A stretch of DNA of 62,522 nucleotides, filler included, from a bacterium (GTDB taxonomy: Bacteria; JALSQH01): the NCBI GenBank assembly GCA_027004335.1. It is 8 parts of 8 records of this genome, joined end to end, with 100 filler letters (N's around TTAATTAATTAA, not from the genome) between each part and the next. Parts side by side here need not be neighbours in the genome. Positions count along the whole stretch, not along the records: positions 5,486 to 10,854 come from JALTID010000020.1; 7 more parts are not named here. The stretch is one strand, 5' to 3'. This document shows, one piece after another, positions 561-21,494 of this stretch. Position numbers and translations under genes: made by a program. Under the pieces are notes generated by a model. That model searched no databases and had not been told where the DNA came from. It worked only from the letters and a program-made list of their open reading frames with translations. Every line of letters starts with the position of its first letter. Positions within the stretch are counted from its first letter, which is position 1.

Positions 561-731
561 AATATTAACCTCCTTTAATTTGTTAGTCTTGTGATTTAAC
601 TTACATTTTCCAGCTAGTGGACAGGCATCACATGGACTATGTCCTTCTTTTTTCAGAAAAATTTTACTGAGATATCTCCATATGAAGATTATTGAGCAAA
701 TCAATATAACAGCAATTATTACATTTGTCAT
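561..731 (-). CDS. FeoB-associated Cys-rich small membrane protein, in frame with the porin with no stop
   Basis: MTNVIIAVILICSIIFIWRYLSKIFLKKEGHSPCDACPLAGKC...: one TM helix plus CxxCxxxxxC, directly after feoB. Confidence 0.75.
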
Positions 732-741
732 TATCTTCCCC

Positions 742-2883
742 CTAAAACCCCAAAAATTTTCCAATACTGAAAACAAGTGTAGATGCGATGTAGGGAACTA
801 AGGTGGTTAACAAGATGGAGAATCCCAGTATTCCCCATCCGAATTCCTGATAAATTGCTCCCAGTGTTACTATGCATGGTATCCATAGCAATGTAAAAAC
901 CATATAAGAATAGGATGAAAGAGGAGTAAATGCATTTTTTATCTTTTTTAAAAGCGGAGATTCTTCAACCTCCATCTCAAAAATTGATGATTTCCATGTG
1001 GCGAGACTTTTAAGAGATTCCCAGATTGCTACGAAGAATCCCTTTATCTGATCAATTGAGTCTTCCCAGAATGAAGATTTTTCCTCTTTACCCTCTTCTT
1101 CTTCACCAGCCCCATAAGCCTGCCCGAGTGCACCCACTACCGCTTCTTTGGCTATTGTTCCTGGTATAAGCGCAGCTACAGCCTGCCATTTGTCGCCGAA
1201 TCCTGCAGGCTTAAAAATTGGTGCTATAGTTCTCGCTGTAACTCCAAGGATCGTTTTTTCCGGAGGAGCTCCATAGGGAATATTTATCAGTGCCCATAGA
1301 AATATCATCGTGATAAAAATGATTGTTCCTGCTTTTATGACAAATGCTCTTGTCCTAAGCCACATTGAGCTCCATATCATTTTTAGTGTTGGTACCCTGT
1401 AGGGAGGAAGTTCCATTAAAAATTCTTCTGCTTTTCCCTTGAAAACTGCTTTCTTCAGTATCAGACCCACTATGACTGCAACCGCAATGCCAAAAACATA
1501 CAGTGATAAAACGACTCCTGCTTGTCCATGTCTAAAGAATACCGCTGTGAAGAGTGCGTATATTGGTAACCTTGCTCCACAGGACATATACGGGATTAAC
1601 AGTGCGGTTATCTTCCTTGCTTTTTCATCTTCAAGTGCTCTTGTTGCATAAATTGCCGGTACATTACAACCAAAACCGATTACCATGGGGACAAAAGATT
1701 TACCATGAAGCCCTATCCCTTTCATTAGCTTGTCCATAACAAAGGCGACTCTTGCCATGTAACCACTTTCTTCAAGAAGGGCAAGAAAAAAGTAGAGGAA
1801 GAACATAAGTGGCACAAAAGAAAGTACCAGACCAACTCCTCCTATAATACCGTCTACAATTAAGGATGTTAGCCATGGTGGAGATTTAGATAAGATTATC
1901 CCTGTCCATTTTCCTATGTAACCATTTATGAATCCATCTGTCCAATCTATAAATGGCCCACTTCCGTTAAATGTGAAGAGAAAAACGAGATAGAGTAACA
2001 AAAGAAAGATAGGAATTCCTAACATTCTGTTTAAAAAAATACTATCCAATATTTCAGTTAATTCCCTTTTTCTCTCTACTGGACGCCTGAGAACATTTTT
2101 AACTATTGAATTAACTCCACCATATCTCTCTTCAGGGATTAAAGTTCCGATGTCTTCGCCGAAGTACTTTTCTAAGCGTTTTCTAACATCATCTATGATT
2201 TCTTCTCTTGGTAATTTCCCGAGAAGATCTTTTTTCTCCATTCTTTCATAGAAATATTCATCTTTTTCCAACAGCTTAAGGGCAGTCCATCTTTTAGGTA
2301 GTTGAAAGTCTTCAGGGATATAGTTTATTAATTCTTCAATACTTTCCTCTATTTTTTGACTCAGCTTCAGAAAGTTAGGTTTATTTTGTTTTTCAGAGGT
2401 GGAAATTATTGCCTTTAGAAGTTTATTTACTCCCTTACCTTTTGTGGCTACAGTCGTGATCACTTTTGCATTTATAGCCTGCTCAAATTTCTCAATATCG
2501 AGTCTGTAACCTTTATCTTCAAATTCATCCCACATATTAAGTGCGATAACTGTAGGTATTTCAAGGTCTAAAAGTTGTGAGGTAAGATAGAGATTTCTTT
2601 CTAAGTTTGTAGCATCAATAACATTTATTATAGCATCTATTTTTTCTTCTAGTAAAAAGTCTCTTGCTATTTTTTCCTCGATCGTGTAGGGACTTAAGCT
2701 GTATATTCCGGGAAGATCGACCAGCTTTATTTTTACTCCATTATAAGTAAGCTCTGCTTCTTTTTTTTCAACAGTAACTCCTGGCCAGTTACCGATTTTT
2801 AACTTTGCTCCTGATAGTGAATTTATCAGAGCGGTTTTCCCCACATTGGGATTTCCTGCAAAGGCTATGATTAACTCCTTCAT
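742..2883 (-). CDS. feoB: Ferrous iron transporter B
   Basis: G1 GNPNVGKT, G2 NWPGVTVE, G3 DLPG; membrane domain with GFGCNVPA and MSCGARLP. Confidence 0.98.
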   Translation of the reverse strand: MKELIIAFAGNPNVGKTALINSLSGAKLKIGNWPGVTVEKKEAELTYNGVKIKLVDLPGIYSLSPYTIEEKIARDFLLEEKIDAIINVIDATNLERNLYLTSQLLDLEIPTVIALNMWDEFEDKGYRLDIEKFEQAINAKVITTVATKGKGVNKLLKAIISTSEKQNKPNFLKLSQKIEESIEELINYIPEDFQLPKRWTALKLLEKDEYFYERMEKKDLLGKLPREEIIDDVRKRLEKYFGEDIGTLIPEERYGGVNSIVKNVLRRPVERKRELTEILDSIFLNRMLGIPIFLLLLYLVFLFTFNGSGPFIDWTDGFINGYIGKWTGIILSKSPPWLTSLIVDGIIGGVGLVLSFVPLMFFLYFFLALLEESGYMARVAFVMDKLMKGIGLHGKSFVPMVIGFGCNVPAIYATRALEDEKARKITALLIPYMSCGARLPIYALFTAVFFRHGQAGVVLSLYVFGIAVAVIVGLILKKAVFKGKAEEFLMELPPYRVPTLKMIWSSMWLRTRAFVIKAGTIIFITMIFLWALINIPYGAPPEKTILGVTARTIAPIFKPAGFGDKWQAVAALIPGTIAKEAVVGALGQAYGAGEEEEGKEEKSSFWEDSIDQIKGFFVAIWESLKSLATWKSSIFEMEVEESPLLKKIKNAFTPLSSYSYMVFTLLWIPCIVTLGAIYQEFGWGILGFSILLTTLVPYIASTLVFSIGKFLGF

Positions 2884-3122
2884 AGTGCCTCCTTGTTAAG
2901 CTTTTCTATTTCTATTTGTTCGGCTTCTCTTTTTCTAAGGGAAAGCTTATAACCTTTTACTCTAATTTCAATGGGATCTCCTAACGGTGCCACTTTTTCT
3001 AATACTAAAGTTTCTCCTTTCACTATTCCCATATCTCTCAACCTCCTTTTCAGTTTTTGATCCCCTGCAATAATTCTAATGATTGTTCCCCCTTCACCGG
3101 GTGATAATTCATTCAATTTCAT
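2880..3122 (-). CDS. feoA: Ferrous iron transport protein A
   Basis: RRLRDMGI...APLGDPIEIRVKGYKLSLRKREA; overlaps feoB start by 4 nt. Confidence 0.96.
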   Translation of the reverse strand: MKLNELSPGEGGTIIRIIAGDQKLKRRLRDMGIVKGETLVLEKVAPLGDPIEIRVKGYKLSLRKREAEQIEIEKLNKEAL

Positions 3123-3382
3123 CCCTTCACCTCCTTTACATATATTTTGCTTGCCATTCCAAAGCCTATCCCTATCCTCATTTCACCGTTCTTAAGCACA
3201 ATTGGACCAGGCGCGGATTTAATAACTTCGTAAATTTTACCTGGGACAATACCCATTGATAAGAGCCTATTATGTGCATTTCTTCCGCTCCTTATTTCAA
3301 CTATCTCAACCCTTTCTCTTTCTTTAGCGAAAGAAAGAGGGAAAATATTAGGTTTTCTTAACATTGTTAGAACATCCTTCAT
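3119..3382 (-). CDS. feoA: Second FeoA-family protein
   Basis: RLLSMGIVPG...GPIVL...IGIGFGMASKIYV. Exact start uncertain. Confidence 0.9.
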   Translation of the reverse strand: MKDVLTMLRKPNIFPLSFAKERERVEIVEIRSGRNAHNRLLSMGIVPGKIYEVIKSAPGPIVLKNGEMRIGIGFGMASKIYVKEVKG

Positions 3383-3393
3383 CTCAGAAAATA

Positions 3394-3421
3394 ATTGTAT
3401 AAATTTCTAAGGAAATGTCAA
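3394..3421 (-). promoter_or_regulatory. Sigma70-type promoter of the feo operon
   Basis: TTGACA (3421-3416)-N16-TACAAT (3399-3394). Confidence 0.6.
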
Positions 3422-3477
3422 GAAAAATTTTTTAAGGCTTTAAAAGAAATTAACCTGCTAAGGCAAAAATTACCATC

Positions 3478-5385
3478 CTACTCAGGATCACATACCCCGC
3501 CACTGCATAACTGATAAACATCTCCTGTATGAATAAATTTCTTTACCTGCTCTCTTGCCTTATTAAGGCAAAAGGGTACAGCATGGGCTGGAACAGGGGT
3601 AGAGCCACATTTAACATCTGTGGTCTGTTTTTTCCCAAGGGGCGAGTTNNNNNNNNNNTCAGTGGTAATATTGCTAACTGAGGCATCACCAATGCTTTCC
3701 TGAGATAGTATCCTATTGGGAGAAGGACAACAGATACCAGGCATGTATAATTTTTTAAATCCACCAGATGACATGTTAGTTAAACATAGATGTGGATTCA
3801 AATCATAATATGGTGCAAATGTTATGGGATCTACAAGATCATAAAACATCTGTGCCAGAACAACCATCTTGGTAATTTCATATTCATCCGGGATTTTAAG
3901 CATAAATAGCCCCTCAAAGTAGTTCCAGTTGTTATACCTCTGAAACAGTATTGACCATACAGCTCCATTAACCACCAGAGCGTCAGGGAAATCTTCGCCT
4001 AAGGCATGAAAATAAGGATCTTCTATCAACTTTTCTAATGAAGTTCCAAGAAACCTACACACGTTATTTCTTATCAAACCAAGGAGGTATTTTGAAGTAT
4101 ACGCAAAGGTACCCCCCTGAATCCCGCCATTAGAAACCCCATAATAAAAAGGCAATAAAGTAGCTCTTGTAGAAAATTCTGGATAAGCTTTAAGTAAAAT
4201 ATCATAGGCATCCAGAGTCAGAGCAAGNNNNNNNNNNATCAAGATGTCCCTGAAGTAAATTTTCTGCCATTCCTATAAGTCCATAGAAAGGATGCTGATC
4301 TGAAACAAGGGCATTTTTTATTGTTCTTTCCATTCCCTCGTAATCAGCACCAATCCAGTTAGTGGCAACTTCAACTGAGCACCAATCCTCCGCATCTTTC
4401 TTCAACATATAATCATTTAGGGAATCTAAACTTCCTCCAAGTCCATGGCCAAATATCATTACCCCAATTTTAGTTGCCTCGGTTACACATTTTGGGATAT
4501 TTATCTTAAATGGGATATCCTTCCAGATAAAATGATCTATATCAACTCCACCATCTGAGTTTCTCTTTACTCTCGAATCATTTTTTATCAAAAGCCAGGG
4601 AACAGAGATAGTACCAGAAACCTGCTTCAGGAGAAAGTCCCCGCTACCAGCGTCGGGAAAATCCTTTTCCTGTGTTATCTTAAAAGAAAATGGGGCTTCA
4701 TTTTTCTCAAATCTCTCCATGAATATCTGGTGAATCAGATTTATTACTCTCCCCATATTCTTCCCAATGATGTTTTTGTCACTTCCTGTTGTAAAATCCC
4801 ACATGAGAAATATCTTTGAACGGGATAAAGAGACTCTGGTAAGCTGTGAAAAATAATATTCATATTTACTTCTGATACTCTCCACATAGTTGCTGTCTGT
4901 AGGAATAGAGTCCCTTAAGGCTCTAAAAGCTGAAGGCGGTGTTCCATCCTTTGTGATGCCATTTTTTAGGATAACAAGGTAAGTTGTTTCTGGCTCCAGT
5001 CTTATTAATGGATGAATTAGAAGAACAAATTTCTCATAGGATCTTGAATCTCCTTCTGCAAATAAGGGGACTCTCTTCCATGTTTTGGTATTTACAAGCT
5101 GAATTGTTGATGTGGCTTCTGTTGATCTTTCGGGATGAAAGAGATCCGGAAAGTTATCATCTTTGTTGATTGTTCCATTTAACATTACCAGAATCTGAGT
5201 GGCGGGGCTGAAACCATCAAAGATCTTAAACTCATCTACTGGAAACTCTGCCCCGCCGGTAGTTTTTGCAAAAGCTGAAGCAGGAATATTCACATAGGTT
5301 GAATCTGTTGTAGCTGAGAGAAACTGGTTGGTTGGAAATGGAGTAAGGCAGTCTCCCATGGAGAAGATATTACACTTCTGTGTAT
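3478..5385 (-). CDS. Secreted alpha/beta-hydrolase (lipase-like, with Ig-like N-terminal region); 5' partial; broken by two 10-N gaps
   Basis: CLTPFP, DGFSP, LEPETTYLV, MIFGHGLGGS and nucleophile elbow YGVSNGG. Frame changes coincide with N-gaps 3649-3658 and 4228-4237. Confidence 0.7.
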
Positions 5386-5485
5386 NNNNNNNNNNNNNNN
5401 NNNNNNNNNNNNNNNNNNNNNNNNNNNNNTTAATTAATTAANNNNNNNNNNNNNNNNNNNNNNNNNNNNNNNNNNNNNNNNNNNN
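5386..5485. other. Artificial contig linker
   Basis: N44-TTAATTAATTAA-N44; identical at seven places. Confidence 0.99.
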
Positions 5486-5924
5486 ATTCCACAATGGCGT
5501 CATTTATTCCCAGAACCATTGAGCCAACATAGTTGAGCTTCTCCTCATCCAGCATATCTATTAAAAGAGCCTCATGTTTCTCCTCATCTTCAAGAATATT
5601 TTGCGCCTCCGGGATCTCATCCACTAATTTTTGATACTTGTGCTCCGCAAGGGTTTCCCCTTTTTCCATCATTTTTATCGCAAAAGTGAGGCTGAAGATC
5701 CTCGCAACAAAAGTGTAAAACCTGATCTTCCACCTATGAGGTTTCACTTCTATGCCGGTGTACTTTTTCCACATATTATGATGAGAAAGTTCATCGGCAG
5801 AGATATCGTTCAATACATCACGATTTTCTCCTGTAATTATTCTGGACAAATTCCTATATATCTCATGCTCAGTTAATTCGCTTCTCTGCGATTCAATGAG
5901 AATCTTCCTGATCTCTTCTTTCAT
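5486..5924 (-). CDS. Rubrerythrin/ferritin-like + VIT1/CCC1 family protein (3' partial)
   Basis: ExxE/ExxH diiron-like motifs (DELSH, DEEKHE), then VLGINDAIVE at the start of the CCC1 domain. SD AGGAGG before ATG 5924. Confidence 0.85.
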
Positions 5925-5972
5925 TGATTTATCCTCCTTACCTTTCATGGAAAACAGAAAAAACTTCCAACT

Positions 5973-7481
5973 TCATCCCCATTTATAAATAACCCCTTTA
6001 CCACCAGGTGGGTAACTCCACTCTATATTTTCGTAGGGGCAAAAATAGTTACAAAATCCACACTCAAGGCACTGCTCATCATTCACAATTATTCCACCAT
6101 CTAACTCACTATACACAGCACCAGGACACATATCCAGACATGGCTTATTTTCACACCTGGCACATATATCTGGATCTTCCAGCCCTATAAAACCCTTAAC
6201 AGGTCTTCTATCAAGATGGGATTGAATAAACTCCCTCATATCCTTTTTTTCCCCAGGATAAGATGAAGAAGTTTCAGAGAGGAGCTTTTTTATCTCCTCC
6301 ATCACACCAGTTTCACCCAGAGAATTAAGCATGGCTACTGCTGCAATCAAAAATTTTGAAAAATTCCTTTCAATTCTCTCGTGTCTTCTGAAAACAAGAT
6401 GATAAATCTTAGTATTTCTGAATATCCTCCACAATCCATTTTGTTTCAAAAATTTTACATAAATTTTGTTACTATGATTAAGATTTATACCTTTCTCTCT
6501 TATTTCAGTAATCGCCTTTGCCACAGATACGCCACTGAGAAAAGCTATCGGTAGCCCGCTCAGATCACCTGCGGCAGAACCCATGGCATCCCCTGCAAGA
6601 AATACTCTTTTTTTTGCAAAAAAAGGATTAAGAAGAGAAATGTAACCATACGGAATCAGATGGGTTGAGATCTCAAGGGCTTTACCTCCATCAATGAAAG
6701 AAGCAAGGTAGGGATGCTTCTTCAACATCTGGTGCAATTCCAGTGCAGAAATACCATGTTTTATAAGATAACTCACTCTGGCACCTGTACCAAAAGAGAT
6801 TGACTCTTTATTAGTGTATATAAAACCTCCTCCTGGAATAGAATAATCGGGATGCCCAATTATATCTATAACTGCACCTTTACCTGAAGAAAGCCCAAAT
6901 CTTTTTTCAATAACCTCTGGAGTTAATTCAATAACCTCTTTCACACTTACAAAGAGATTCTCCTGAGGTATTTTTTTTCTTATTTCTGCTGAAGTGGCTG
7001 TAACTGAATTCACCCCATCAGCACCAACTACAAAATCAGCAGTCACCTCACCTCTATCTGTAATAACCCGTACTCTATCAACTTCATTAACAACTCTTTT
7101 CACCAGGGAATCAGTGATTATTTCTCCTCCCTTTTCCCTCGCTTTTTCTGCAAGATAGGGATCAAATTTTGATCTAAAAAGAGTGACAGCTTCAAACTTC
7201 CCCTCATATTTCCTCACCCCTACATGTGCCAGTGTGGTAGAAGTTATGAAAAAATGCTCCTCAGCTTCAATCTCCCTTTCATAGGGAGGCAATGGAAGTT
7301 CAGGGAAAGCTTTTTTAAAATACTCAAGGTACATCACCCCACCCATTACATTCTTTTCCCCGGGACGACTACCTCTTTCAATTATGCCAACAGAAAAACC
7401 TTTTGATAAAAGATGATACGCCGTAGTTAACCCCGCAGGACCTGCTCCAACTACAATTACATCAAAATCTTTTCCATGCAT
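5973..7481 (-). CDS. FixC-type FAD oxidoreductase fused to FixX ferredoxin (ETF:quinone oxidoreductase-like)
   Basis: VVGAGPAG, ERG..PGEKNVMGG, GGGFIYTNKESIS; C-terminal CENKPCLDMCP...CLECGFC...CP...WSYPPGGKGVIYKWG. Confidence 0.88.
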   Translation of the reverse strand: MHGKDFDVIVVGAGPAGLTTAYHLLSKGFSVGIIERGSRPGEKNVMGGVMYLEYFKKAFPELPLPPYEREIEAEEHFFITSTTLAHVGVRKYEGKFEAVTLFRSKFDPYLAEKAREKGGEIITDSLVKRVVNEVDRVRVITDRGEVTADFVVGADGVNSVTATSAEIRKKIPQENLFVSVKEVIELTPEVIEKRFGLSSGKGAVIDIIGHPDYSIPGGGFIYTNKESISFGTGARVSYLIKHGISALELHQMLKKHPYLASFIDGGKALEISTHLIPYGYISLLNPFFAKKRVFLAGDAMGSAAGDLSGLPIAFLSGVSVAKAITEIREKGINLNHSNKIYVKFLKQNGLWRIFRNTKIYHLVFRRHERIERNFSKFLIAAVAMLNSLGETGVMEEIKKLLSETSSSYPGEKKDMREFIQSHLDRRPVKGFIGLEDPDICARCENKPCLDMCPGAVYSELDGGIIVNDEQCLECGFCNYFCPYENIEWSYPPGGKGVIYKWG

Positions 7482-7520
7482 AAGAGACTTATTATACAGT
7501 AGAGAAATGACTGTGCAAAA

Positions 7521-9068
7521 TCAGGGAGATTCTTCCATAAATTCTTTCCGACAATGTTCCAAATCTATGCCCATTTCTTGTAATTTATCCGGTGTAAGGG
7601 GATCAATTTCAGCTATTTTCTCAAGATCAATATAGGGGATATTATAATTATAGGTTTTATTTACCGCTTCAATAAACATATCTGCGATAAGGGCATAACC
7701 TGTGTAGGTAAGATGCACAGCATCAAGACTTACAAGACCTCCAAGGTAATCTGGAGTAAAAATCTCATCTCCTATAACAACTCCACCATTTTTTATTAAA
7801 ATCCCATTATCTAAATGGTACTCCTTTCCATTCGTCTTTGATTGTTCTATTTTCTGGATGTAACCTCTGAAATCAACTATATGAATGTTATCATACTTTT
7901 CAGCAACCTCTGTAAATGCAGTACTGTACTCAGCAGATATTCTCTTCAAACCATTCCACCATGCATCCACTTCTTCAGAAGAATAACCTACATGGAGAAG
8001 GTGATTTTTCATTTTCCCTAAGATAGGCATAGCTGTTATATCAGGCATATTTGCAATAAAACCCACCACTCCTTTTGCATTCATCTCTGAGAACATCTTA
8101 TCAAGTTCTTTCTTTACAATTGCAATTGGTGTAACTTCATCAAGAGATGGTGTCCCGTTGATAAGGGAAAATTCAAGAATATCATCAGCATAAAGGTCAG
8201 TGGAAAAGAGAACTGTCGGGTTCAATGATAATGCATATTCAACTGGGCTGCCCTGCGGGGGATCCTGAAAAGCGTAGAAAATATCTGTAAAGGGATCATA
8301 GGAGAGATGCTCAAGTACTGCGAGCACATGGAGTCTTCCATGCTCAGCCCCCTCCACACTATCCTGAACTGTGGCGCCACCAATACCAGCATTGTAAACT
8401 GTTAAATATGGATCCACTCTGTATGAAGCAAGGATAAAAATTTTTTTCTTCTCCTTATTCCTTATTAAGCTAAGGGTTTTTAATATTCTCCTCAGCAGAA
8501 TATCATTCATCTCAGTTCCATTACAATTGGTAAGTAAACTTGCTGGATCTTGTGGAATAAGGATCCCCTCTCTTATAAGTGCCTGTGGAAAATAAGCTCC
8601 TGCCTGCTTTGCCACCTGCGCAAAAGGACTGTACTGCTGTAACTTCCAATCAAGCCCCATACTTATAAATCCATGAGTATAACTTGCTCCAACACTGACC
8701 ATCTTTTTGAAAATAGGATACTTTAATGAAGTATATCTAAAAGCATTTTTAATAACGAAATTACCCTTATTTGTATAAATATAAATTGGATAAGCTCCTC
8801 CTTTCTCTGCTCCTTCAGTATACCCGGAAATTGTTCCTCCAAAATAGGCCGCATAGTAAAGGTCATGCCCAGCAATACTCACCCTCACAGAGGTAATTCC
8901 AGCAGGGAAATCTGTTGAATGTATATTTAATTCCACATTACCATAAAGAGAGGTACTTGTAGGAGATAGGGAATAATTTTTTAATTGCCTGAACTTAATA
9001 GGGACCCCGTTATTCCCCCCGCAGCCCAACAAAAGCAAAATAAGAAGAAAAACTATTACCCTTTTCAT
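7521..9068 (-). CDS. SGNH/GDSL-family hydrolase lipoprotein
   Basis: Lipobox LLGC; block I VGASYTHG; NAGIGGA; C-terminal SLDAVHL (DxxH). Confidence 0.78.
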   Translation of the reverse strand: MKRVIVFLLILLLLGCGGNNGVPIKFRQLKNYSLSPTSTSLYGNVELNIHSTDFPAGITSVRVSIAGHDLYYAAYFGGTISGYTEGAEKGGAYPIYIYTNKGNFVIKNAFRYTSLKYPIFKKMVSVGASYTHGFISMGLDWKLQQYSPFAQVAKQAGAYFPQALIREGILIPQDPASLLTNCNGTEMNDILLRRILKTLSLIRNKEKKKIFILASYRVDPYLTVYNAGIGGATVQDSVEGAEHGRLHVLAVLEHLSYDPFTDIFYAFQDPPQGSPVEYALSLNPTVLFSTDLYADDILEFSLINGTPSLDEVTPIAIVKKELDKMFSEMNAKGVVGFIANMPDITAMPILGKMKNHLLHVGYSSEEVDAWWNGLKRISAEYSTAFTEVAEKYDNIHIVDFRGYIQKIEQSKTNGKEYHLDNGILIKNGGVVIGDEIFTPDYLGGLVSLDAVHLTYTGYALIADMFIEAVNKTYNYNIPYIDLEKIAEIDPLTPDKLQEMGIDLEHCRKEFMEESP

Positions 9069-9091
9069 ACTTCACCTCCGGGGTTTTAAAG

Positions 9092-9120
9092 AGTTTGTCA
9101 CATTATTTAACAGGTGTCAA
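9092..9120 (-). promoter_or_regulatory. Candidate promoter of the SGNH gene
   Basis: TTGACA-N17-CAAACT on the minus strand. Confidence 0.4.
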
Positions 9121-9299
9121 GTCAGTGGCTATCATGCGCCATAGATGGGTACAAACAAACTGACCACTTTAAAAATTGATTCAATATATTTCGCTTCCTA
9201 AGTTTGCTTAGATACTCAAAGGAGGGGGCAAAAAATTTCCATCCCTGCCATTCCAAAAGCAGTTATCGCAATTGCCCCAAGTGTAAGAGCGAACAATTA

Positions 9300-9516
9300 T
9301 TCACCACAATAGAGAATCTTATGAAGTATCTTGATTATCCTTATTTGCTTCGTCAATACATTTATACAACGAACCTCCCTGGAAAGATTTAATAAAGAGA
9401 TCAAGAAGAGTGCTACGGTAATAGAAGTATCTAATGATAAGAAAGCGGTTGAAAAAATATTTTTAGTGATTCCTAAGATAAATGACAGCTACGGCAGACG
9501 AAAATTGAAGTATTAA
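9300..9516 (+). pseudogene. IS256-family transposase C-terminal relic (frameshifted)
   Basis: YPYLLRQYIYTTN in one frame continues as LERFNKEIKK..VIEV..AVEKI in another, matching the IS256 IYTTNxxERxNKEIK motif. Confidence 0.8.
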
Positions 9517-9536
9517 AAAGGGAAAAGAGGAAAAAA

Positions 9537-9611
9537 TCCCAGCTTTCTAGCATTTCCTTTTCTAATGCTTTCTTTAACTCAAGGTGAGGAATATGTCTTA
9601 ACCAGAATAAG
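9537..9611 (-). repeat. Dispersed repeat, copy A
   Basis: About 59/75 identical by hand to 12266-12340; core CTGGTTAAGACAT. Confidence 0.85.
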
Positions 9612-9619
9612 TATTCCCC

Positions 9620-9647
9620 TTGACAGTTCAATGGTGTTGAATATACT
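9620..9647 (+). promoter_or_regulatory. Promoter upstream of the speD leader
   Basis: TTGACA-N16-TATACT. Confidence 0.6.
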
Positions 9648-9686
9648 AATTAACAGTTTCTCAAAAGTTAGGAGGTGATGAAAGGT

Positions 9687-9752
9687 ATGCGTGATGGTGA
9701 AGCTGACAAGCGTATTTGTGTTGATGGGCTTCTTTACCTTGATAACTGGTGA
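9687..9752 (+). CDS. Putative leader peptide MRDGEADKRICVDGLLYLDNW (21 aa)
   Basis: SD AGGAGGT at 9670-9676; ORF lies between the promoter and speD; alternative in-frame ATG at 9678. Confidence 0.55.
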   Translation: MRDGEADKRICVDGLLYLDNW

Positions 9753-9778
9753 AAACCTTAATAAGGAGGTAGGATGAA

Positions 9779-10192
9779 GTGAAAAAGGTACTTGGAACTC
9801 AATTAATTGTGGAACTTTATGGTTGCGATCCTGAAACCCTTACCAATCGCGATTATGTTGAAAAAACTCTTCAGGAGGCCACAGTTAAATCGCACGCACA
9901 TTCAATTGGTTCTTTCTTTCATCAATTTCAACCACATGGTGTTTCCGGTGTAATAATCATTGAAGAATCACATTATACAATTCACACCTGGCCAGAGCAT
10001 GGTTATGCGGCGGTAGATCTTTTCTACTGCAGCAACGAGGTAGATGTCGAAAAGGCTCTGGATGTACTGGAAGAATATTTCAAACCTGAGAAAATAACAC
10101 TTTTTGAGCTAAAACGGGGTGTAATACCTGAAAAGAAGAAGTATGAAATTCCAGCCAGAGTAGAAAACAAAAGCCAGGTGGCATTGGCCTAA
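9779..10192 (+). CDS. speD: S-adenosylmethionine decarboxylase proenzyme
   Basis: FQPHGVSG..IEESHYTIHTWPE (E/SH autocleavage site); GTG start. Confidence 0.96.
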   Translation: MKKVLGTQLIVELYGCDPETLTNRDYVEKTLQEATVKSHAHSIGSFFHQFQPHGVSGVIIIEESHYTIHTWPEHGYAAVDLFYCSNEVDVEKALDVLEEYFKPEKITLFELKRGVIPEKKKYEIPARVENKSQVALA

Positions 10193-10213
10193 AATTTTAT
10201 TTCTGGAGTTTTT

Positions 10214-10854
10214 ATGAATGAACGATGTCCCCCCCTGTGGTATGTAGAAACGGTTGGGGACAGTTTGTATTACTATTACAGAGTAGAAAGTTTTATTTAT
10301 CAAGGAGAGTCTAAGTTTCAGAAAATAGATGTTGTGGACACATGCGAATTGGGAAGAGTTCTCTTCCTGGATGAGAAAATACAATCTGCGGAAATTGATG
10401 AGTTTATATACCATGAAATGCTGGTTCATCCCGCAATGTTTCTTCATCCTGCCCCTGAAAAAGTTTTGGTGATTGGTGGGGGAGAAGGTGCAACTCTCAG
10501 GGAAGTGCTGCTTCATCCATCTGTAAAGAAAGCAATCATGGTTGATATAGATAAAGAACTTGTGGACACATGTAAAAAGTATCTTGAAAAGTGGCATAAA
10601 GGTGCCTTTGACAACCCACGAAGTGAGGTAATTTTTGATGATGCAAGAAAATTTATTTTTGAAGAGGACGAAAAATTTGATGTGATCATTTCAGATCTTA
10701 CTGAACCACTGGAGGAAGGTCCATCTGTTTACCTTTTTACAAAAGAGTTTTATCAGAAGGTGTACCAGCAGCTGAGTGATGAAGGGGTGTTTGTTACCCA
10801 GGCTGGAAGTGCTGACATCTATTATTATAATTTACCTGTTACTCTTTACAGGAC
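10214..10854 (+). CDS. speE: Polyamine aminopropyltransferase / spermidine synthase (3' partial)
   Basis: DEFIYHEMLVH, VLVIGGGEG, FDVIISDLTEP. Confidence 0.95.
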
Positions 10855-10954
10855 NNNNNNNNNNNNNNNNNNNNNNNNNNNNNNNNNNNNNNNNNNNNTT
10901 AATTAATTAANNNNNNNNNNNNNNNNNNNNNNNNNNNNNNNNNNNNNNNNNNNN
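10855..10954. other. Artificial contig linker
   Basis: N/TTAATTAATTAA/N spacer. Confidence 0.99.
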
Positions 10955-11041
10955 ACCTAAGGCATTTACTTCAAAAATATCCCGGGAGTCCACTTTAGGG
11001 GGAATATAAGGTTTTTTCCCTTTTCTTTCGTCTTTTTTCAT
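10955..11041 (-). CDS. Putative RiPP precursor, leader portion (3' truncated)
   Basis: MKKDERKGKKPYIPPKVDSRDIFEVNALG...; YxxP motif; promoter directly upstream. Confidence 0.55.
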
Positions 11042-11048
11042 TATAAAT

Positions 11049-11077
11049 ATTATATATACAATTTATGTTTCTTGCAA
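11049..11077 (-). promoter_or_regulatory. Leaderless-type promoter
   Basis: TTGCAA-N17-TATAAT, 7 nt before ATG 11041, no SD. Confidence 0.6.
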
Positions 11078-11218
11078 TTATTTTATGGGTGTAGGTTTTT
11101 CTTTTATCCGCATCCTTGGGTTTATGTAACCGACAGTTTTCTTTACTGCCTTTTTGACCTTCATAATTCTTCGTAAGACCCCCATTTTTTTTACATCTAC
11201 GGTTACATCACCTTTCAT
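11078..11218 (-). CDS. Small basic ORF (46 aa), possibly a truncated TusA-like protein
   Basis: SD AAGGAGGT; MKGDVTVDVKKMGVLRRIMKVKKAVKK... Confidence 0.45.
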   Translation of the reverse strand: MKGDVTVDVKKMGVLRRIMKVKKAVKKTVGYINPRMRIKEKPTPIK

Positions 11219-11249
11219 TTTGTCACCTCCTTGTTCGCCATTTTTTATT

Positions 11250-12197
11250 TTATACTTCTTCTTCAATTATTTTTCTTACCCATATTTTCTCAGCAAGACC
11301 CTTTCCCAAAATGATTTCTTTCCCGTTTACTTTCATTACGACGAAATGTCCTGTATTTTCACCTTCGTGACTTTTTATTTCTTCAACTGAAAGAATTTCT
11401 ATTTTTTTGTTTATTATTTCTTCTTCTCCTAATTTTTCGAGAAATTCTTTACCTCCAATTATTTTTTTTATTGTTCCCATATTCTCGAGAAAGTTTGACT
11501 GGACAATTCCCTTCCCGGTTTCCACCAGAATCTTTGCAGCTTCACCATCTCCAAGAACATATTTGCTTCCATTAATTTTGAATGAGTATGTCTTTTCTAC
11601 ATCATGTCCCTCGATATTAACTTCAACTCCTTCTTCAAGGCCAATTTGTGAAAGAGCTGCGATCATTTCTTCGTTGAGTTTAATACTGTTTATAGTGCCT
11701 CTTTCACCTTTTTCCATCTCCAGGAGTTTTCTGTCTCCCACTATTACTTTTTCTGCGATTCCCCTGGGGATCAATAGTTTTTCCCCCTTTATTTTTACCA
11801 ATAGTGGTCCACTGTGTATATGACTAACTTTTTTTTCTGCTACCTCTGCTACTGTTCCTACAACTATCCCTTGATTATCAAGTTCTTTTGTAACCTGTGC
11901 TCCTCCATCAATCCTTGCTATCCTTATTAATGTGCCTTTTTCAACATCAGTGAGGGGGAAAAGCTCTATCCTTCTAAAGTATCCATGATAAAAACCATCA
12001 TCTTTTTTTATCACTTCGATGAGTTCTATCGTGCCTATCATCTGGGCCATTTTGCCAGCAACTTTTGGCATCCTTTCATCATCTGTAATTACTTCGATTA
12101 CCTCTCCTAATTTTAGCTCCTTGCTTTCCTCTTTTACTATCTGTTGTCTTTCCTTGACGCTTTTCCCTATTACATTGATTTTATTCTTTACTTCCAT
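11250..12197 (-). CDS. TusA/SirA-like domain + three FeoA (SH3-like) domains
   Basis: Start reassigned to ATG 12197 (SD GGAGG, promoter upstream). LKLGEVIEVITDD is TusA-like. Three units end IPRGIAEKVIV, LGDGEAAKILV and LGKGLAEKIWV. Confidence 0.75.
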   Translation of the reverse strand: MEVKNKINVIGKSVKERQQIVKEESKELKLGEVIEVITDDERMPKVAGKMAQMIGTIELIEVIKKDDGFYHGYFRRIELFPLTDVEKGTLIRIARIDGGAQVTKELDNQGIVVGTVAEVAEKKVSHIHSGPLLVKIKGEKLLIPRGIAEKVIVGDRKLLEMEKGERGTINSIKLNEEMIAALSQIGLEEGVEVNIEGHDVEKTYSFKINGSKYVLGDGEAAKILVETGKGIVQSNFLENMGTIKKIIGGKEFLEKLGEEEIINKKIEILSVEEIKSHEGENTGHFVVMKVNGKEIILGKGLAEKIWVRKIIEEEV

Positions 12198-12228
12198 GCC
12201 ATTACCTCCAAAAATTATTTTTGGTATT

Positions 12229-12257
12229 ATTATACTCACCTAATAAAGTTTTGTCAA
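12229..12257 (-). promoter_or_regulatory. Consensus sigma70 promoter
   Basis: Perfect TTGACA-N17-TATAAT. Confidence 0.85.
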
Positions 12258-12265
12258 CCTAACAT

Positions 12266-12340
12266 CTTTTCCTGGTTAAGACATATCCCCCACCCTAATT
12301 TAAAGAAGGCGTTAGAAAAGGAGATTCCCTTAAGCTGGAA
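12266..12340 (+). repeat. Dispersed repeat, copy B
   Basis: Aligns with copies A and C without gaps. Confidence 0.85.
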
Positions 12341-12567
12341 AAATAAGAAGAGTTATCCTATTATTTCTTCTAACGAATTTGAGACTTTCCATCTGACCCA
12401 TCTCATTTGTTAAAATATAACCGCAACCAGGATTTAAAAGATATTATTGTGAGGTACTATCTTATCATATTGTTATGGTGTTACAATTTACCCTTTTATC
12501 TCCTCACTAAATTTCTTTAACTCCTCTCAGGTGATTTTACCGCAAAGAAAATCATTTAATTTACACC

Positions 12568-12876
12568 TCAATTTATATTTAATAAGTAATCCAGATAAAA
12601 TATTTGATTCAGAAAAGCAGGAATTATGAACCATGTTGCATATCCTGACGAAATAAGATTACCGGCCCTGTCCCAGAACTATCTGATTCCAAGTTGAGTT
12701 TTTCCGTCCCAACCCAGAGCAACAATTACCCATCGTTCACCAATATTCTTAAGAACCACAGCATATGGGCCAGAAAGTCTGTTTCTGGGAGAATTGATTT
12801 TCAGGATATCTTCATTTTTATCCAGTGGGAATGTTTCACCTGTGCTTTTCATATGGTACCTAAGATGGTAAAACAA
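12568..12876 (-). pseudogene. Hypothetical protein with an internal TAG
   Basis: ...WDGKTQLGIR(TAG)FWDRAGNLISSGYATWFIIP...; frame stays open and protein-like after the stop. Confidence 0.5.
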
Positions 12877-13001
12877 AAGTAATTTTGAGGAAGAGGGCCT
12901 GCATGGTGATAGTATTGGCTTTTAATATTGTAATTACCATGCTGTCTGGTTTTTCCTGTTGAGATTTACAGAAACCTTACCATTCTGGTATAATATATCA
13001 A

Positions 13002-13460
13002 ATGGAAGTTGCCTCTTTCAGTGTTGGTGCTGTAACAATCTGGGTTAGAGTGGTAGAAGGGATGGTTGAGAGAATATCTTTTTGGGAACTTCAGGGGGCA
13101 CCGCCGGTGAGTGATATATGGAAGAAGGTGGAGGATTTTTTTGAACATTTCATCAGGCATAGAAGTTTTCATGGAATTCCCTTTCTCCTTTTTTCTCCGC
13201 TTCAGGAAAGATTGAAATTTTATCTAATGTTACAGGAGATTCCTCCAGGAGAAACTGAGACTTACGCCTCTGTGGCAGAAAAATTCTGGGGTAGTAGAAA
13301 ATACGCCAGAGTTGCTGGAAGATGGCTTGCCAGTAACAGATGGCCCATTCTCTTTCCGTGCCATAGAGTAATAAAAAGTGATGGTTCTCCCGGTGGATTT
13401 ACGGGAGGAATTGAGATAAAGAGATTGCTTTTAAGCTGGGAAAAGGGAGGTGAAAAATGA
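13002..13460 (+). CDS. ogt: Methylated-DNA-protein-cysteine methyltransferase
   Basis: IPPGETETY and active-site PCHRV. Confidence 0.92.
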
Positions 13461-14305
13461 AAAAATTTGTTGGTGCACATGTTAAAACAGCGGGTGGGGT
13501 TCAAAATGCACCCCTTAATGCAGTCGAAATTGGGGCAAAAGCTTTTGCCCTTTTTCTGAAAAATCAGAGGAGATGGTTTGCTAAGCCTTATGATAATAAA
13601 GCCATCGGAGAGTTTAAAAAGAATTTGAAAGAATCAGGAATTCTGGTAAAGCATGTTCTTCCCCATGATAGTTATCTTATAAACTTAGGTAACCCTGATA
13701 AAGAGAAGTGGGAAAAGGCTCTTAACGCTTTTATTGATGAGGTTACCAGGGCATCTCAGTTGGGACTGGACAAGCTCAATTTCCACCCCGGTGCACATCT
13801 GAATCAAATATCAGAGGAAGATTGTTTAAAGATAATAGCAGAGGCAATGAATATAACTCTTGAGCAGACGGAAGGTGTTACTCTGGTAATAGAGACAACT
13901 GCGGGGCAGGGTTCCAATGTGGGATATAAATTTGAGCATTTGAGGACTTTAATTGATTTAGTTGAGGATAAGTCCAGGGTTGGTGTTTGTATTGATACTT
14001 GCCATATTTTTGCGGGAGGTTATGATCTGAGAGATGAAAAAGCATATGAGAAAACAATGAAGGAATTTAATGATGTAATAGGGTTTAATTTTCTTAGAGG
14101 AGTGCATCTGAATGATGCTGCCAGTGAATTAGGAAGTAGAGTGGATAGACATGCACATATTGGTGAGGGTAATATTGGTATTGAAGCTTTCCGTATGATA
14201 ATGAATGATAGCAGATTTGATGATATTCCTTTAATTCTTGAAACACCTAAAGAGGAAAGATGGCCCGAGGAGATAAAACTTCTCTACTCTCTTATTGAAA
14301 AATGA
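13457..14305 (+). CDS. nfo: Endonuclease IV
   Basis: [35 protein letters not shown]. Confidence 0.97.
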
Positions 14306-14652
14306 TGAGGCTCTTTTTTAGCACCATTCCCAGACAGCATGGTACATGGTTCATATTTCTCACTGCGTATATAATGGGTCATTTTGTTTATTCTCTTCCT
14401 TTAAATAGTTCCACTATCCTGTTTATCAGCATACTTTTTGCCATTTTTGCTTTTAATACTTCTGTGATAATAATAAAAGGGTACAGGATTGGAAAAAGGA
14501 CTCTAAAATTTTTGCCCACATATCTGAGAGCACTTTATATTGTTTTCAAACGTTATGAGGCACCTCCCGCTGTGGTGAAAATTGGCTGGAGTGAAGTTGC
14601 CAACAGCTTGATTTTTGTGACTCTGGTAATACTGGTTTTCAGGGTAAGTTAA
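14302..14652 (+). CDS. YwiC-like membrane protein, apparently internally shortened
   Basis: N-terminal PRQHGTW and C-terminal KIGWSE; only 116 aa. Confidence 0.55.
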
Positions 14653-16295
14653 ATGTGGACGGAGAAGATAGGTGATGTACCCCATAGACCCGGGGTATAT
14701 ATTTTCAAAGATGTCAGGGGAAAGGTTATCTACATAGGGAAAGCCCGGGATCTGAAGAAAAGACTTCTCAGCTACAGTAGAGGTCATGATAACAGGCTGC
14801 TTGTTCCCTTTCTTGTGAGCCAGATAGCAGATTTTGAATACATTTTAACCACCAATGAAACAGAGGCGTTTCTGTTAGAAGATACTCTCATAAAGAAGTA
14901 TAAGCCCCTGTACAATATAAGACTGAGGGATGATAAGACCTATGTGAGCATTGAAGTTTCTGTAGGAGATAAATTCCCCGGAGTGTATGTGATAAGGAGA
15001 AAGCCAAACAAGAAAGGTAGTGTTGTCTTTGGTCCCTACTCATCTGCCTCTTCTGTTAGAGAGACTCTGCGGTATATTCTGAGGGTTTTCCCCCTCCGTA
15101 CCTGTACCGATAATAAAATGAGAGTGCATCGGGATCGTCCCTGTATCTACTACCAGATAAAAAAATGTTCTGCTCCCTGTGTGGGATATGTAGATGAAAA
15201 GAAGTACCGTGAATATGTAGAAGGTTTAATTAGATTTTTAAAGGGTGAGGGAGAGGAAATTGTAAATGATCTAAAAAATAAGATAGAGAAACTTGCTGAG
15301 GATCTTAAATTTGAAGAGGCAGCTGAATACAGGGATAGACTCAGGGCTCTGGAAAGAGTTCTTACAAGACAGGCAGTAGTTATGAATAGAAAAGTTAATG
15401 CTGATTATCTGGGGTGGGCTGCAGGAGGAGGGCACCTCGTGATAACAAGAATTATTGTAAGGGGAGGCAGACTTATAGATAAGGAGAATTTTACCCATTC
15501 TCCAGTGATTAATCCAGAGGAGGAAATAGGAAGTTATATATATCAGCTCTACAGAGTGGTTTCCAATCCTCCCCAATTTGTTTATGTTTCTCCTTTTGAG
15601 GGGAAGGATGTTTTAAAAGAACTCCTCTATCATTTAGATGTTAAGATTGGCTTGAAATCAGGTGCGAGAGAAATGGTAAATCGTGAACTTCTTGGACTTG
15701 CAGCTAAAAATGCTGAAGATTACCTGAAGAATGTTGCTGAAAAAGAAGGGATTTTAAGACTCCTTGAGAAGATAAAGAAAAAGTTTCAGCTCAGGAAGCT
15801 TCCCCGAAGGATCGAATGTGTTGATATATCTGAACTGGGAGGCAAAGAAGCTGTTGGAAGTATGGTAACATTTATTGATGGTGAACCTGTAAAAGATGAA
15901 TACAGAAAATACAGGATAAAAGAGGTAGAGGGGATAGATGATTTCGGGATGATCAGGGAGGTGGTAACAAGAAGGTTGCGGGAAGACAGAGAATTACCAG
16001 ACCTGATATTGATAGATGGGGGAAAGGGTCAGCTATCTGTGGCCAGGAAAGTTGTTGAAGATCTTGGACTGGAAGATGAGATAGAGCTCCTTGCAATAGC
16101 AAAAGATAGGAGAAGTGGTAGAGGAGAGAGGATTTTTAAGCCTAACAGAGTTAATCCTGTAAGACTGAAAGAGGGAACCCCTGAGTATAAGCTTTTCGTT
16201 TCTGTGAGAAATGAGGCACACAGGTTTGCAGTAAAGTATAACAGGCTTTTAAGAAAGGAAACATTAAAATCTGGTTTACTTTCAATTCCTGGAAT
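14653..16295 (+). CDS. uvrC: Excinuclease ABC subunit C (3' partial)
   Basis: GIY-YIG PGVY..IYIGKA, Cys cluster, UVR domain, PDLILIDGGKGQ, RNEAHRFA. Confidence 0.97.
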
Positions 16296-16395
16296 NNNNN
16301 NNNNNNNNNNNNNNNNNNNNNNNNNNNNNNNNNNNNNNNTTAATTAATTAANNNNNNNNNNNNNNNNNNNNNNNNNNNNNNNNNNNNNNNNNNNN
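16296..16395. other. Artificial contig linker
   Basis: N/TTAATTAATTAA/N spacer. Confidence 0.99.
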
Positions 16396-16767
16396 AATGG
16401 GTTAATGGCAAGGAAAAAAGATGTTACAGTGCCTTCATCAAAACTTAAGAAGGTGATTCTTGAAATATTAAAGAAGGAAGGTTACATAGAAGATTATCAG
16501 GAATTTTCGGTTCCTACCAGAAAGGAAGAGCAAGGAAAGAAACTGAGATTGCAGATATTTTTGAAATATTATAATGAAAAGCCAGTGATCGCCCATATGG
16601 AAAAAGTAAGTAAACCAGGAAGAAGAATTTATGTAAGTGCGAATGAAATCCCAAGAGTCAGAAATGGTCTGGGTATTGCTATACTTTCCACATCTAAAGG
16701 TATATTGACAGATAGCGAAGCTAAAAGAGAAAATGTGGGTGGTGAACTTTTGTGCATAATCTGGTAG
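16396..16767 (+). CDS. rpsH: 30S ribosomal protein S8 (5' partial)
   Basis: SKPGRRIY, GLGIAILSTSKG, GGELLC. Confidence 0.97.
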   Translation, partial: NGLMARKKDVTVPSSKLKKVILEILKKEGYIEDYQEFSVPTRKEEQGKKLRLQIFLKYYNEKPVIAHMEKVSKPGRRIYVSANEIPRVRNGLGIAILSTSKGILTDSEAKRENVGGELLCIIW

Positions 16768-16787
16768 GAGAAACAGGAGAGTAAAAA

Positions 16788-17357
16788 ATGGCAAGATATG
16801 GGAAAATGCCAGTTAATATTCCATCTGGTGTGGATATCAAAATAGAGGATAGGAATATAAAGGTAAAAGGTCCCAAAGGAGAATTGTCCTGGATTCATCC
16901 AGAAGGTGTAAGAGTAATAAGAGAGGATAATCAGATTAAGGTTAAAATAGAAAATCCAAAGAATAAGCAGCAGCTTGCGTTTCAGGGATTAACAAGGAGT
17001 TTGATAAATAACATGGTTACTGGTGTCACTCTGGGGTTTGTGAAGGAACTCTATCTTGTAGGAAAAACTTATAGTGTTCAACTTAGAGGGAATAAGTTGG
17101 TTATGAATCTTGGTTACTCACATCCAGTGGAATTTGCAGCTCCAGCTGGAATAGATTTTGAAGTTGAACCTGCTCCTTTTTCCATTAGTGATCAGAATGT
17201 TACAATTATTAGAGTAAAAGGGATTGATAAACACCTTGTAGGACAGATTAGTGCAGATATTAGAAAGTTGAGAGAACCTGATAATTACAAAGGAAAAGGT
17301 ATAAGATACAAAAATGAAAGATTGATTTTGAAGGAAGGGAAAAAATCTAAGAAATAG
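16788..17357 (+). CDS. rplF: 50S ribosomal protein L6
   Basis: [25 protein letters not shown]. Confidence 0.97.
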
Positions 17358-17368
17358 TGGGGGCTGAG

Positions 17369-17737
17369 ATGTTGAGCAAAGAAAGAAAAAAAGATAAAAG
17401 GTTAAAGAGAAGGATAAGGATAAGAAAAAAAATAACAGGTACAGCTGAAAAACCTCGGCTTACTGTTTATAGAAGCTTGAAGTATATTTATGCTCAGATA
17501 ATTGATGATGAGAAAAGCCACACTCTTGTTGCTGCTTCTTCCCTTGAAAAGGAATTAAAAGAGGGTATCAAATCCACAAGAGATATTGGAGCAGCAAAAG
17601 CTGTGGGTGAACTAATTGCAAAAAGAGCTCTTGAGAGAGGAGTTAAAGAGGTAGTATTTGATAGGAATGGCTATAAGTATCATGGCAGGGTGAAAGCCCT
17701 CGCTGATGCGGCAAGGGAAGCAGGATTAAAGTTTTAG
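17369..17737 (+). CDS. rplR: 50S ribosomal protein L18
   Basis: [32 protein letters not shown]; start 17369 or 17357. Confidence 0.97.
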
Positions 17738-17751
17738 AGGAGGTACCGAAA

Positions 17752-18255
17752 TTGGTATTTAATAGTTTGAGGGATGAAGGATGGATAGAGAAGACTATTC
17801 AGATAAGAAGAGTTGCAAAAGTTGTCGCAGGAGGCAGAAGGTTTAATTTCAGTGTCCTTGTAGTTGTGGGTGACGGAAATGGTCGTGTGGGAGTAGGTCT
17901 GGGGAAAGCGAGGCAGGTTCCTGATGCTGTAAGAAAAGCTGTGGAAGATGCTAAAAAGAATATTCTCTCTATCCCAATTTTTAATAACACAATTCCCCAT
18001 GAAGTTATTGGCTATTTTGGGGCAAGCAAGGTTTTGTTAAAACCAGCCAGTCCAGGTACAGGAGTTATTGCTGGGAGCACTGTTCGGGCTGTGATGGAAG
18101 CCGCTGGTATAAAAAATATTCTTACCAAAAGTCTTGGATCTAATAACCCTCAAAATCTTGTGAAGGCAGTAATTGATGGTTTTCTTCAACTTGAATCGCC
18201 TGAGTATGTGGCAGCTAAGAGAGGTAAGAGTATAGAGGAAATCCGTGGTGAATAG
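17752..18255 (+). CDS. rpsE: 30S ribosomal protein S5
   Basis: [23 protein letters not shown]. Confidence 0.97.
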
Positions 18256-18266
18256 GAGGAGCTTCC

Positions 18267-20008: not shown

Positions 20009-20027
20009 ATCTTAAAAGGAGAAGGGA

Positions 20028-20672: not shown

Positions 20673-20677
20673 TACTT

Positions 20678-21430: not shown

Positions 21431-21439
21431 TATATGTTG

Positions 21440-21468: not shown

Positions 21469-21494
21469 TACTGCTAAAATAAAAAGGATATTTT

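Follow-up and report, generated by a model that had tools for sequence, protein, structure and literature searches.

Three copies of a repeat, on three contigs of a draft bacterial genome, end at the same base and are each followed, after exactly 8 unrelated nucleotides, by a perfect TTGACA hexamer belonging to the predicted promoter of the next gene. The arrangement of repeat and TTGACA is real and non-random. We favour, with a probability that we put a little below even, the explanation that the repeats are right ends of an IS256-type insertion sequence (IS), placed by insertion-site choice one target-duplication length upstream of −35 boxes. The data thus suggest, and do not prove, that promoters were the chosen landing sites.

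The window, i.e., the whole stretch of DNA that was analysed (62,522 nt), is made up of 8 contigs of a draft assembly with 38% G+C (1–5385, 5486–10854, 10955–16295, 16396–31448, 31549–36803, 36904–42156, 42257–57221 and 57322–62522). The contigs are joined by linkers of the form N44-TTAATTAATTAA-N44 (at 5386–5485, 10855–10954, 16296–16395, 31449–31548, 36804–36903, 42157–42256 and 57222–57321), and ORFs and repeats that cross a linker are artefacts; further N10 gaps are present at 3649, 4228 and 18847. The gene content is that of an uncultured diderm bacterium (ribosomal protein operon, SecY, RpoA, trp operon, MlaE and CarD). Feature coordinates are collected in Table 1.

Table 1. Positions of the repeat copies, the adjoining promoters and the neighbouring genes in the window.
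Feature	Position	Strand	Remarks
IS256-family transposase C-terminus relic	9309–9513	+	reads toward the copy 1 repeat and promoter
Repeat copy 1	9537–9611	+	terminal 75 nt, end ...ATGTCTTAACCAGAATAAG; nhmmer E 1e-21; contig 5486–10854
Unrelated 8-nt block, copy 1	9612–9619	+	
speD operon promoter	9620–9647	+	TTGACA, 16 nt, TATACT; 11/12
speD	9779–10192	+	AdoMet_dc, E 1e-39; downstream of copy 1
speE	10214 to contig end (10854)	+	downstream of copy 1
Repeat copy 2	12266–12395	−	contig 10955–16295; outer 75 nt (12340–12266) common with copy 1
Unrelated 8-nt block, copy 2	12265–12258	−	
FeoA-domain gene promoter	12229–12257	−	TTGACA, 17 nt, TATAAT; 12/12
FeoA-domain protein gene	11250–12239	−	downstream of copy 2; 2 FeoA stretches
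Island-2 ORF	12679–12876		
Repeat copy 3	32956–33011	−	contig 31549–36803; ~56 nt; nhmmer model positions 18–75, E 8e-10
Unrelated 8-nt block, copy 3	32955–32948	−	
Hypothetical-gene promoter (copy 3)	32919–32947	−	TTGACA, 17 nt, TGcAAAAAT; 10/12, TG present
Hypothetical secreted or C-terminally anchored protein	32474–32888	−	downstream of copy 3; no family
HEPN	33037–33363	−	inner side of copy 3
MNT	33399–33767	−	inner side of copy 3
Rpn/Transposase_31 N-terminal fragment	33890–34081	+	inner side of copy 3

Direct reading of the sequence found all three copies where an earlier note had placed them, on three different contigs. The location of the third stood, and the 40-nt extent given for it (32956–32995) did not: with nhmmer it covers about 56 nt, beginning ~25 nt past the HEPN stop codon. 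The inner ~55 nt of copy 2, up to ~12395, are similar only to a metagenome ORF, here called P0002 (query residues 1–43 correspond to 12267–12395). The 13-mer ATGTCTTAACCAG occurs exactly three times in the window at zero mismatches, and allowing up to two mismatches adds no sites. At the end of each copy it is followed by RAWAAG (AATAAG, GAAAAG and GAAAAG, respectively), then by 8 unrelated bases and then by TTGACA. Pairwise identity over the last 39 nt of the repeat is 32/39, 34/39 and 35/39 (the last for copies 2 and 3), and copies 1 and 2 are identical at 27 of the next 36 positions inward (75%). In the 8-nt block the identity is 1/8, 2/8 and 1/8 (copies 2 and 3: 1/8), and past TTGACA it is 9/35, 10/35 and 14/35, as for unrelated flanks.

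The earlier claim that ATGTCTTAACCAG is separated from TTGACA by exactly 14 nt held in all three copies (hexamers at 9620–9625 on the plus strand and at 12257–12252 and 32947–32942 on the minus strand), as did its observation that the last 8 of these 14 nt and the sequence past TTGACA differ between copies. Since the homology continues 6 nt beyond the 13-mer, the unrelated part is only 8 nt long; the spacing is therefore better read as 8 unrelated nt and is not the 15–17 nt of the ISLre2/TnGBS elements. The outer boundary of the repeat is sharp and falls on the same base in 3/3 copies, the inner sides are truncated at different points, and mobile or accessory DNA lies on the inner side.

Besides the three copies no others were detected in the window by nhmmer with 2 profiles (next best E 0.3–0.8). 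A weak direct repeat (64%) of the outer 39 nt lies at 12400–12438, 134 nt further inward in island 2, and may be a decayed second copy or a chance resemblance. A degenerate 23-nt core pattern scanned over a genome collection yielded 1 locus, a chance match in a coding region of a Methanomicrobiales MAG. Blastn of copy 2 against the plasmid collection returned only AT-rich matches in Borrelia (E 0.1). The repeat gave 0 matches in Rfam, where a catalogued identity had been thought possible, and 0 tRNA or tmRNA genes with ARAGORN; a shared or unusually stable fold was absent on both strands (z-scores −1.67 to +0.53, with structures differing per copy).

TTGACA is present at 26 sites on both strands of the window (~2e-4 per position), fewer than in shuffled sequences. 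The chance that two more copies share TTGACA at one offset is p ~4e-8, or ~2e-6 over 40 offsets, and for three unrelated flanks with the hexamer at a common offset p is ~1e-6; the sample for the fixed spacing consists of n=3 loci in DNA and 2 more seen only as protein. The promoters of copies 1 and 2 are the two best (11/12 and 12/12) among 15 promoter-like sites in 9000–13100. A promoter that lacks the repeat (38020–38039 on the plus strand; TTGACA, 18 nt, TACAAT, ahead of an ORF at 38101–38928) also has AATAAG, 8 nt and TTGACA, like copy 1, although its region resembles the repeat no more than expected by chance. RAWAAG could thus belong to promoters and not to the tip of an element. Fourth copies upstream of the promoters at 38034 and 41263 were considered on account of a 13/14 inverted match (1/300 shuffles, 6 tests) and a suggestive MAFFT alignment. 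They were dismissed after a scan of the 26 TTGACA sites, 3 of which scored at least 11/19 where ~1.6 were expected. The sense-strand frame that leaves the repeat (in copy 2 ...GWGICLNQEK) stops in 3/3 copies at the TGA within TTGACA (9621–9623, 12256–12254 and 32946–32944), 3 codons beyond the boundary; an in-frame stop is guaranteed by the 8-nt gap.

In principle, such an arrangement could be a cis-regulatory module, in which selection holds an activator or UP-type site, spanning roughly −90 to −44, at a fixed distance from the −35 box. The alpha-CTD of RNA polymerase and class I activators bind near −56, which is where the invariant 13-mer is centred; the spacing is exact, and the genes of the window include one for an RpoA with an alpha-CTD. 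However, the genes downstream are not related to one another, and the degree of identity (82–90% over 39 nt, 75% over the next 36 nt) is that of a repeat and not of an operator; at such identity, an invariant 13-mer is nothing unusual. The differently truncated inner sides also argue against a regulatory site, as do near-identical 225-nt copies with other flanks in another organism (see below), and we consider it very unlikely. As to the downstream genes, the earlier statement that they are unrelated is borne out (SpeD, a FeoA-domain protein and an ORF without family), with the correction that 2 FeoA stretches, and not three, passed the threshold in the second.

The note had also proposed a coding origin on the opposite strand, where the frame reading WLRH(I/L)PH (WLRHIPHPELKKALEKE...) is open in all three copies. 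Of the 16 differences between copies 1 and 2, 9 fall in one codon phase, the wobble phase of this frame; the bias is not significant, and the same phase is also the wobble phase of the sense-strand frame. The conserved part contains no start codon. A phmmer search with the 48-residue frame of copy 2 against 1.84 billion representatives gave 2 matches at E<=1e-3, each to an ORF that lacks annotation and is short or repetitive. The first, P0001, was rejected as a relative, being a tandem-repeat artefact. The second, P0002, is an unannotated ORF of 108 residues, 49% identical over 43 residues without a change of frame. Word-based searches turned up a single sibling of P0002, P0003, but neither a relative of similar length for the window ORF nor a longer parent; the frame matched no family in Pfam or NCBIfam, and tblastn of P0002 against the plasmid collection gave nothing. 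Fragments of an opposite-strand protein-coding gene are thus hardly credible as the source of the repeat; if anything codes, the C-terminal tail of a transposase on the sense strand is more likely.

P0002 and P0003 come from another organism's metagenome, on contigs of 1546 and 1267 nt, respectively. They are 97% identical from the residues at the repeat tip (FFW, corresponding to CTTTTCCTGG) to their C-termini (~225 nt) and unrelated before that point, a pattern that points to a multi-copy element apparently ending at the same base as the repeat of the window. In P0002, Cys-Glu takes the place of the Cys-Gln (TGTCAA) of the window copies, with the 8-nt spacing unchanged. Judged by back-translation only, this Cys-Glu would be compatible with TTCACA; back-translation of the flank of P0003 gives nothing like TTGACA at this spacing. 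A sharp boundary that recurs in metagenome copies, with mobile or accessory DNA inward of it, supports the earlier suggestion of a mobile-element end. The decayed accessory DNA described inward of each copy was recovered in part: the IS256 relic at copy 1 is decayed, and MNT and HEPN at copy 3 are both intact ORFs. The sense-frame ORFs of copies 2 and 3 matched nothing meaningful in Pfam or NCBIfam.

The relic beside copy 1 carries one frameshift, near 9375, and a stop codon at 9514–9516 where its relative has Trp. Only the last ~70 residues are left; the N-terminal part, including the N1–N2 signature region, is lost. Fragments of the ORF score weakly with family models (NCBIfam NF033543, E 9e-5; Pfam Transposase_mut, E 0.14), and the last ~70 residues score as IS256 family, with no match to the ISLre2 model reported at E<=10. 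Tblastn against the plasmid collection identified one relative, an IS256-family transposase (P0006) on plasmid pDF308 of Deferribacter desulfuricans, residues 307–328 of which align to 9309–9374 (64% identity) and residues 330–375 to 9379–9513 (61%), with E 1.3e-14. The same transposase matched nowhere else in the window by tblastn, and nothing beside copies 2 and 3, so that a transposase relic reading toward the repeat was seen at 1/3 copies.

The pDF308 IS is 1319 bp long (920–2238 of the plasmid locus, L002), as set by an 8-bp direct repeat (CTTAAAAA, at 912–919 and 2239–2246) and long inverted repeats. The latter are bipartite, with identical blocks of 13 and 15 nt, and the left end is 10 nt longer; on the right, the inverted repeat takes in the stop codon of the transposase, 10 nt short of the tip. 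The distance from the end of residue 375 to the right tip of this IS is 97 nt, and that from the aligned point in the window to base 9611 is 98 nt, a comparison that presumes no indel in the unaligned tail. This collinearity makes it most likely that the repeat is what remains of the right end of an IS256-family element, probably that of the relic itself. Its place would most likely be that of the transposase tail and the right inverted repeat, and the family that the earlier note could not assign is most likely IS256, of the Mutator superfamily, by way of the relic which that note itself had described.

Alternatively, the repeat may be part of a different, uncatalogued element (a MITE or a larger transposon) into which the IS256 relic merely landed, with the spacing still due to targeting. 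Copies 1 and 2 lose their similarity 20 nt from the relic stop, and the interior of copy 2 resembles P0002 and not the relic. Local DNA alignment of the repeat with both ends of the pDF308 IS was not significant (at best, 58/1000 shuffles reached the score), and the terminal base is G, not C. Set against these points are the collinearity of 97 versus 98 nt with the Deferribacter IS and the failure to find, in the three islands, terminal inverted repeats or a duplication that would mark a small element. A 14-nt inverted match at the ends of the 75-nt unit of copy 2 was within the range of shuffles and weak in copy 1, and the homology between copy 2 and P0002 continues past it. Overall, we regard a separate element as rather doubtful and continue with an IS256-family end.

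An intact copy or a left end was not found in the window, and an inverted partner (an inverted repeat of 18–39 bp) was not found in the three islands or the whole window; the left ends of the copies may simply have been lost. When a target duplication of 8–9 bp was looked for, the sole exact 8-mer match (at 9011, 601 nt inward of copy 1) fell in the region encoding a lipoprotein signal peptide. An 8-mer with 1 mismatch at the same distance (601 nt) in copy 2 was rejected, since neither it nor the site at 9011 has neighbours resembling an inverted repeat.

Insertion just upstream of promoters is, to our knowledge, a rare strategy, documented only for the ISLre2/TnGBS and ISKra4 lineages. According to the parts of Guerillot et al. 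(2014, PMC3942029) used here, all five prokaryotic Mutator-like families make target duplications of 8–9 bp, and the terminal C of their ends is conserved. For the ISLre2/TnGBS elements (p-MULT 3), sigma-A promoters peak sharply at 16 bp from the right inverted repeat, in a single orientation; the ISKra4 lineage of p-MULT 4 behaves likewise, its right inverted repeat lying ~16 bp ahead of −35 boxes and again in one orientation only. For the IS256 family (p-MULT 1) neither such a peak nor an enrichment of promoters is reported, and the Table S1 rows consulted give ratios of 0–0.13 (PMC3942029). In a non-exhaustive selection of the literature, including parts of PMC3942029 and PMC8024623, promoter targeting by the IS256 family is not reported.

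If their assignment to IS256 is right, the window copies resemble the ISLre2/TnGBS and ISKra4 elements in belonging to the same superfamily, in having the right end face the promoter and the transposase read toward it, and in the fixed distance to a sigma-70-type −35 box with the promoter intact; the duplications of those elements are 8–9 bp long. They differ in the distance itself: 8 nt if counted from where homology ends, 14 nt from the 13-mer and 16 nt from ...AACC, versus 15–17 nt in those elements. Distance and single orientation are fixed in 3/3 copies, and whether the value is 8, 14 or 16 nt depends on where the tip is placed. In contrast to ISLre2, the linked relic scores as IS256, has lost the N-terminal signature linked to targeting and is not accompanied by an intact element.

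With regard to the IS256 family, the likeness lies in the relic (61–64% identical over the last ~70 aligned residues), in the collinearity described above and, by eye, in a subterminal motif that resembles the family's ..TTACACA.. followed by 7 nt and ..AAG. In the Table S1 rows consulted, IS256-family ends read ..[A/T]ACACA.., 6–8 nt, a −35-like hexamer and 5 nt ending in C (PMC3942029). The hexamer is a perfect TTGACA in the right inverted repeats of IS1113, ISCni1 and ISMlu11, and varies in others (CTGACA in ISActu1 and ISApr14, TTTACA in ISCbe6, TTTATA in ISCcl1; IS256 itself differs); ISCni1 and ISMlu11 were found by motif search, and the remaining rows are an unselected run of Table S1 (PMC3942029). 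The boundary of the repeat (...AAAAG or ...ATAAG), however, ends in G and lacks the terminal C; its nearest hexamer lies 8 nt beyond, and the terminal module of hexamer plus 5 nt is absent by eye, the comparison with the catalogued inverted repeats consulted having been made by eye only. Only a tip placed 8 nt further in, at ...TTAACC, would give a terminal C. Words of the repeat, looked for in the Table S1 catalogue of 400+ Mutator-type elements (PMC3942029), gave internal chance matches only.

The hexamers in IS256-family ends raise the question of whether TTGACA was brought along by the IS. A hybrid promoter consists of an outward-facing −35 box in an IS end and a −10 box of the host. In the present case TTGACA would lie within the right inverted repeat and drive the neighbouring gene, and the relic ends would have been kept because they now supply the −35 box. 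Such an origin accounts for perfect hexamers in 3/3 copies, for the fixed spacing and for survival of the promoter-side end. It has precedent in the −35-like hexamer 5 nt from the tip in the ends described above and in a TTGCAC 4 nt from the tip of the pDF308 IS; by eye, ..CTTAACCAGGAAAAG of the window also resembles the part of these ends that precedes the hexamer. In IS-created hybrid promoters the −35 hexamer adjoins the IS end, whereas here 8 nt, different in each copy, split the hexamer from the conserved IS sequence. Copies 2 and 3 agree at 1/8 of these positions, yet at 35/39 just before. In the relatives consulted, moreover, the hexamer directly abuts the subterminal part without an 8-nt gap; here the sequences past TTGACA differ between copies and have no ..YC tip like that of the family, and P0002 and P0003 diverge at the same boundary. 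The stretch past TTGACA is also unlike the left end of an IS, as would be expected at a circle junction: its resemblance did not rise above shuffles. Being preceded by 8 nt that are unlike in every copy, TTGACA looks like host DNA. We therefore judge an IS-borne −35 box unlikely, against a chance somewhat short of even for targeted insertion. Of what the note had put forward, a mobile origin is supported and the fixed distance and orientation to the −35 box stand, and promoter targeting and promoter donation are rival readings of them.

On the favoured explanation, targeted insertion, the repeat would be the right terminal segment of an IS256-family IS, comprising the transposase tail and the subterminal right inverted repeat, and the three copies would be independently truncated, immobile relics. 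At the outer boundary of each, the IS would give way to host DNA, in which a perfect TTGACA follows after exactly 8 bp, a target-duplication length of the Mutator superfamily. The next gene, toward which the transposase reads, would have this TTGACA as its −35 box. The transposase would thus have positioned the right end relative to sigma-70-type −35 hexamers, always at one distance and in one orientation, sparing the promoter, by analogy with the ISLre2/TnGBS and ISKra4 elements of the same superfamily. The −35-like hexamer 5 nt from the tips of IS256-family elements could be the reason why the transposase recognises TTGACA. We infer that the transposon tip lies at the boundary and that targeting accounts for the spacing. 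Counted against targeting are the G instead of C at the boundary, the missing terminal module, the absence of TTGACA 8 nt from the tip of the pDF308 IS, the presence of a transposase relic at copy 1 only and the lack of promoter enrichment reported for the IS256 family.

A more specific version, which we think improbable, is that of an IS256-family lineage without a −35-like module of its own in the right end. Such a lineage would dock 8 bp upstream of a host TTGACA, re-using on the target −35 box the transposase pocket that otherwise holds the hexamer of the end. Were this true, it would explain the source of promoter targeting in Mutator-like transposases and extend the trait to the IS256 family.

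Insertion upstream of promoters lets a transposon spread without breaking genes. It is plausible, and not yet shown, that the spacing pattern represents a new variant of promoter-targeted transposition. If so, this would be a third promoter-targeting lineage, within the IS256 family and with a different spacing, and the trait would have arisen more than once or be older than thought; together with the hexamer of IS256-family ends, it would provide a testable idea of how a transposase finds promoters. Conserved "upstream elements" in draft genomes from metagenomes can be IS scars and not regulator sites. To judge from their position, the scars before the speD–speE polyamine operon and two other genes may affect the expression of these genes.

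Some further observations concern the neighbouring genes. Between the promoter and the speD start at 9779, a 24-codon ORF (MKGMRDGEADKRICVDGLLYLDNW; 9678–9752 on the plus strand) with its own AGGAGG may encode a leader peptide of the polyamine operon. A separate FeoA-FeoA-FeoB operon (742–3421 on the minus strand) has its own promoter (TTGACA, 16 nt, TACAAT) without the repeat, and the FeoA-domain gene behind copy 2 is thus an extra paralogue. Downstream of copy 3, the ATG at 32888, with a good ribosome-binding site, opens a 29-codon frame (32799–32888 on the minus strand) that differs from the frame of the long ORF (32474–32845 on the minus strand; 123 codons, with a signal-peptide-like start and a hydrophobic, basic C-terminus); the mismatch is a frameshift, a sequencing error or a small leader ORF. 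Copies of 201 nt with 82% identity (33841–34041 and 36603–36803) each lie over the start of an Rpn/Transposase_31 (YhgA-like) gene. One of these genes is a 63-codon fragment inside island 3; the other reaches the contig end and is therefore probably a multi-copy gene that breaks the assembly. Elsewhere in the window, an ORF of 1829 codons (47918–53407 on the minus strand) is rich in degenerate internal repeats, whose families reach 28 copies and whose spacing follows multiples of ~39 nt.
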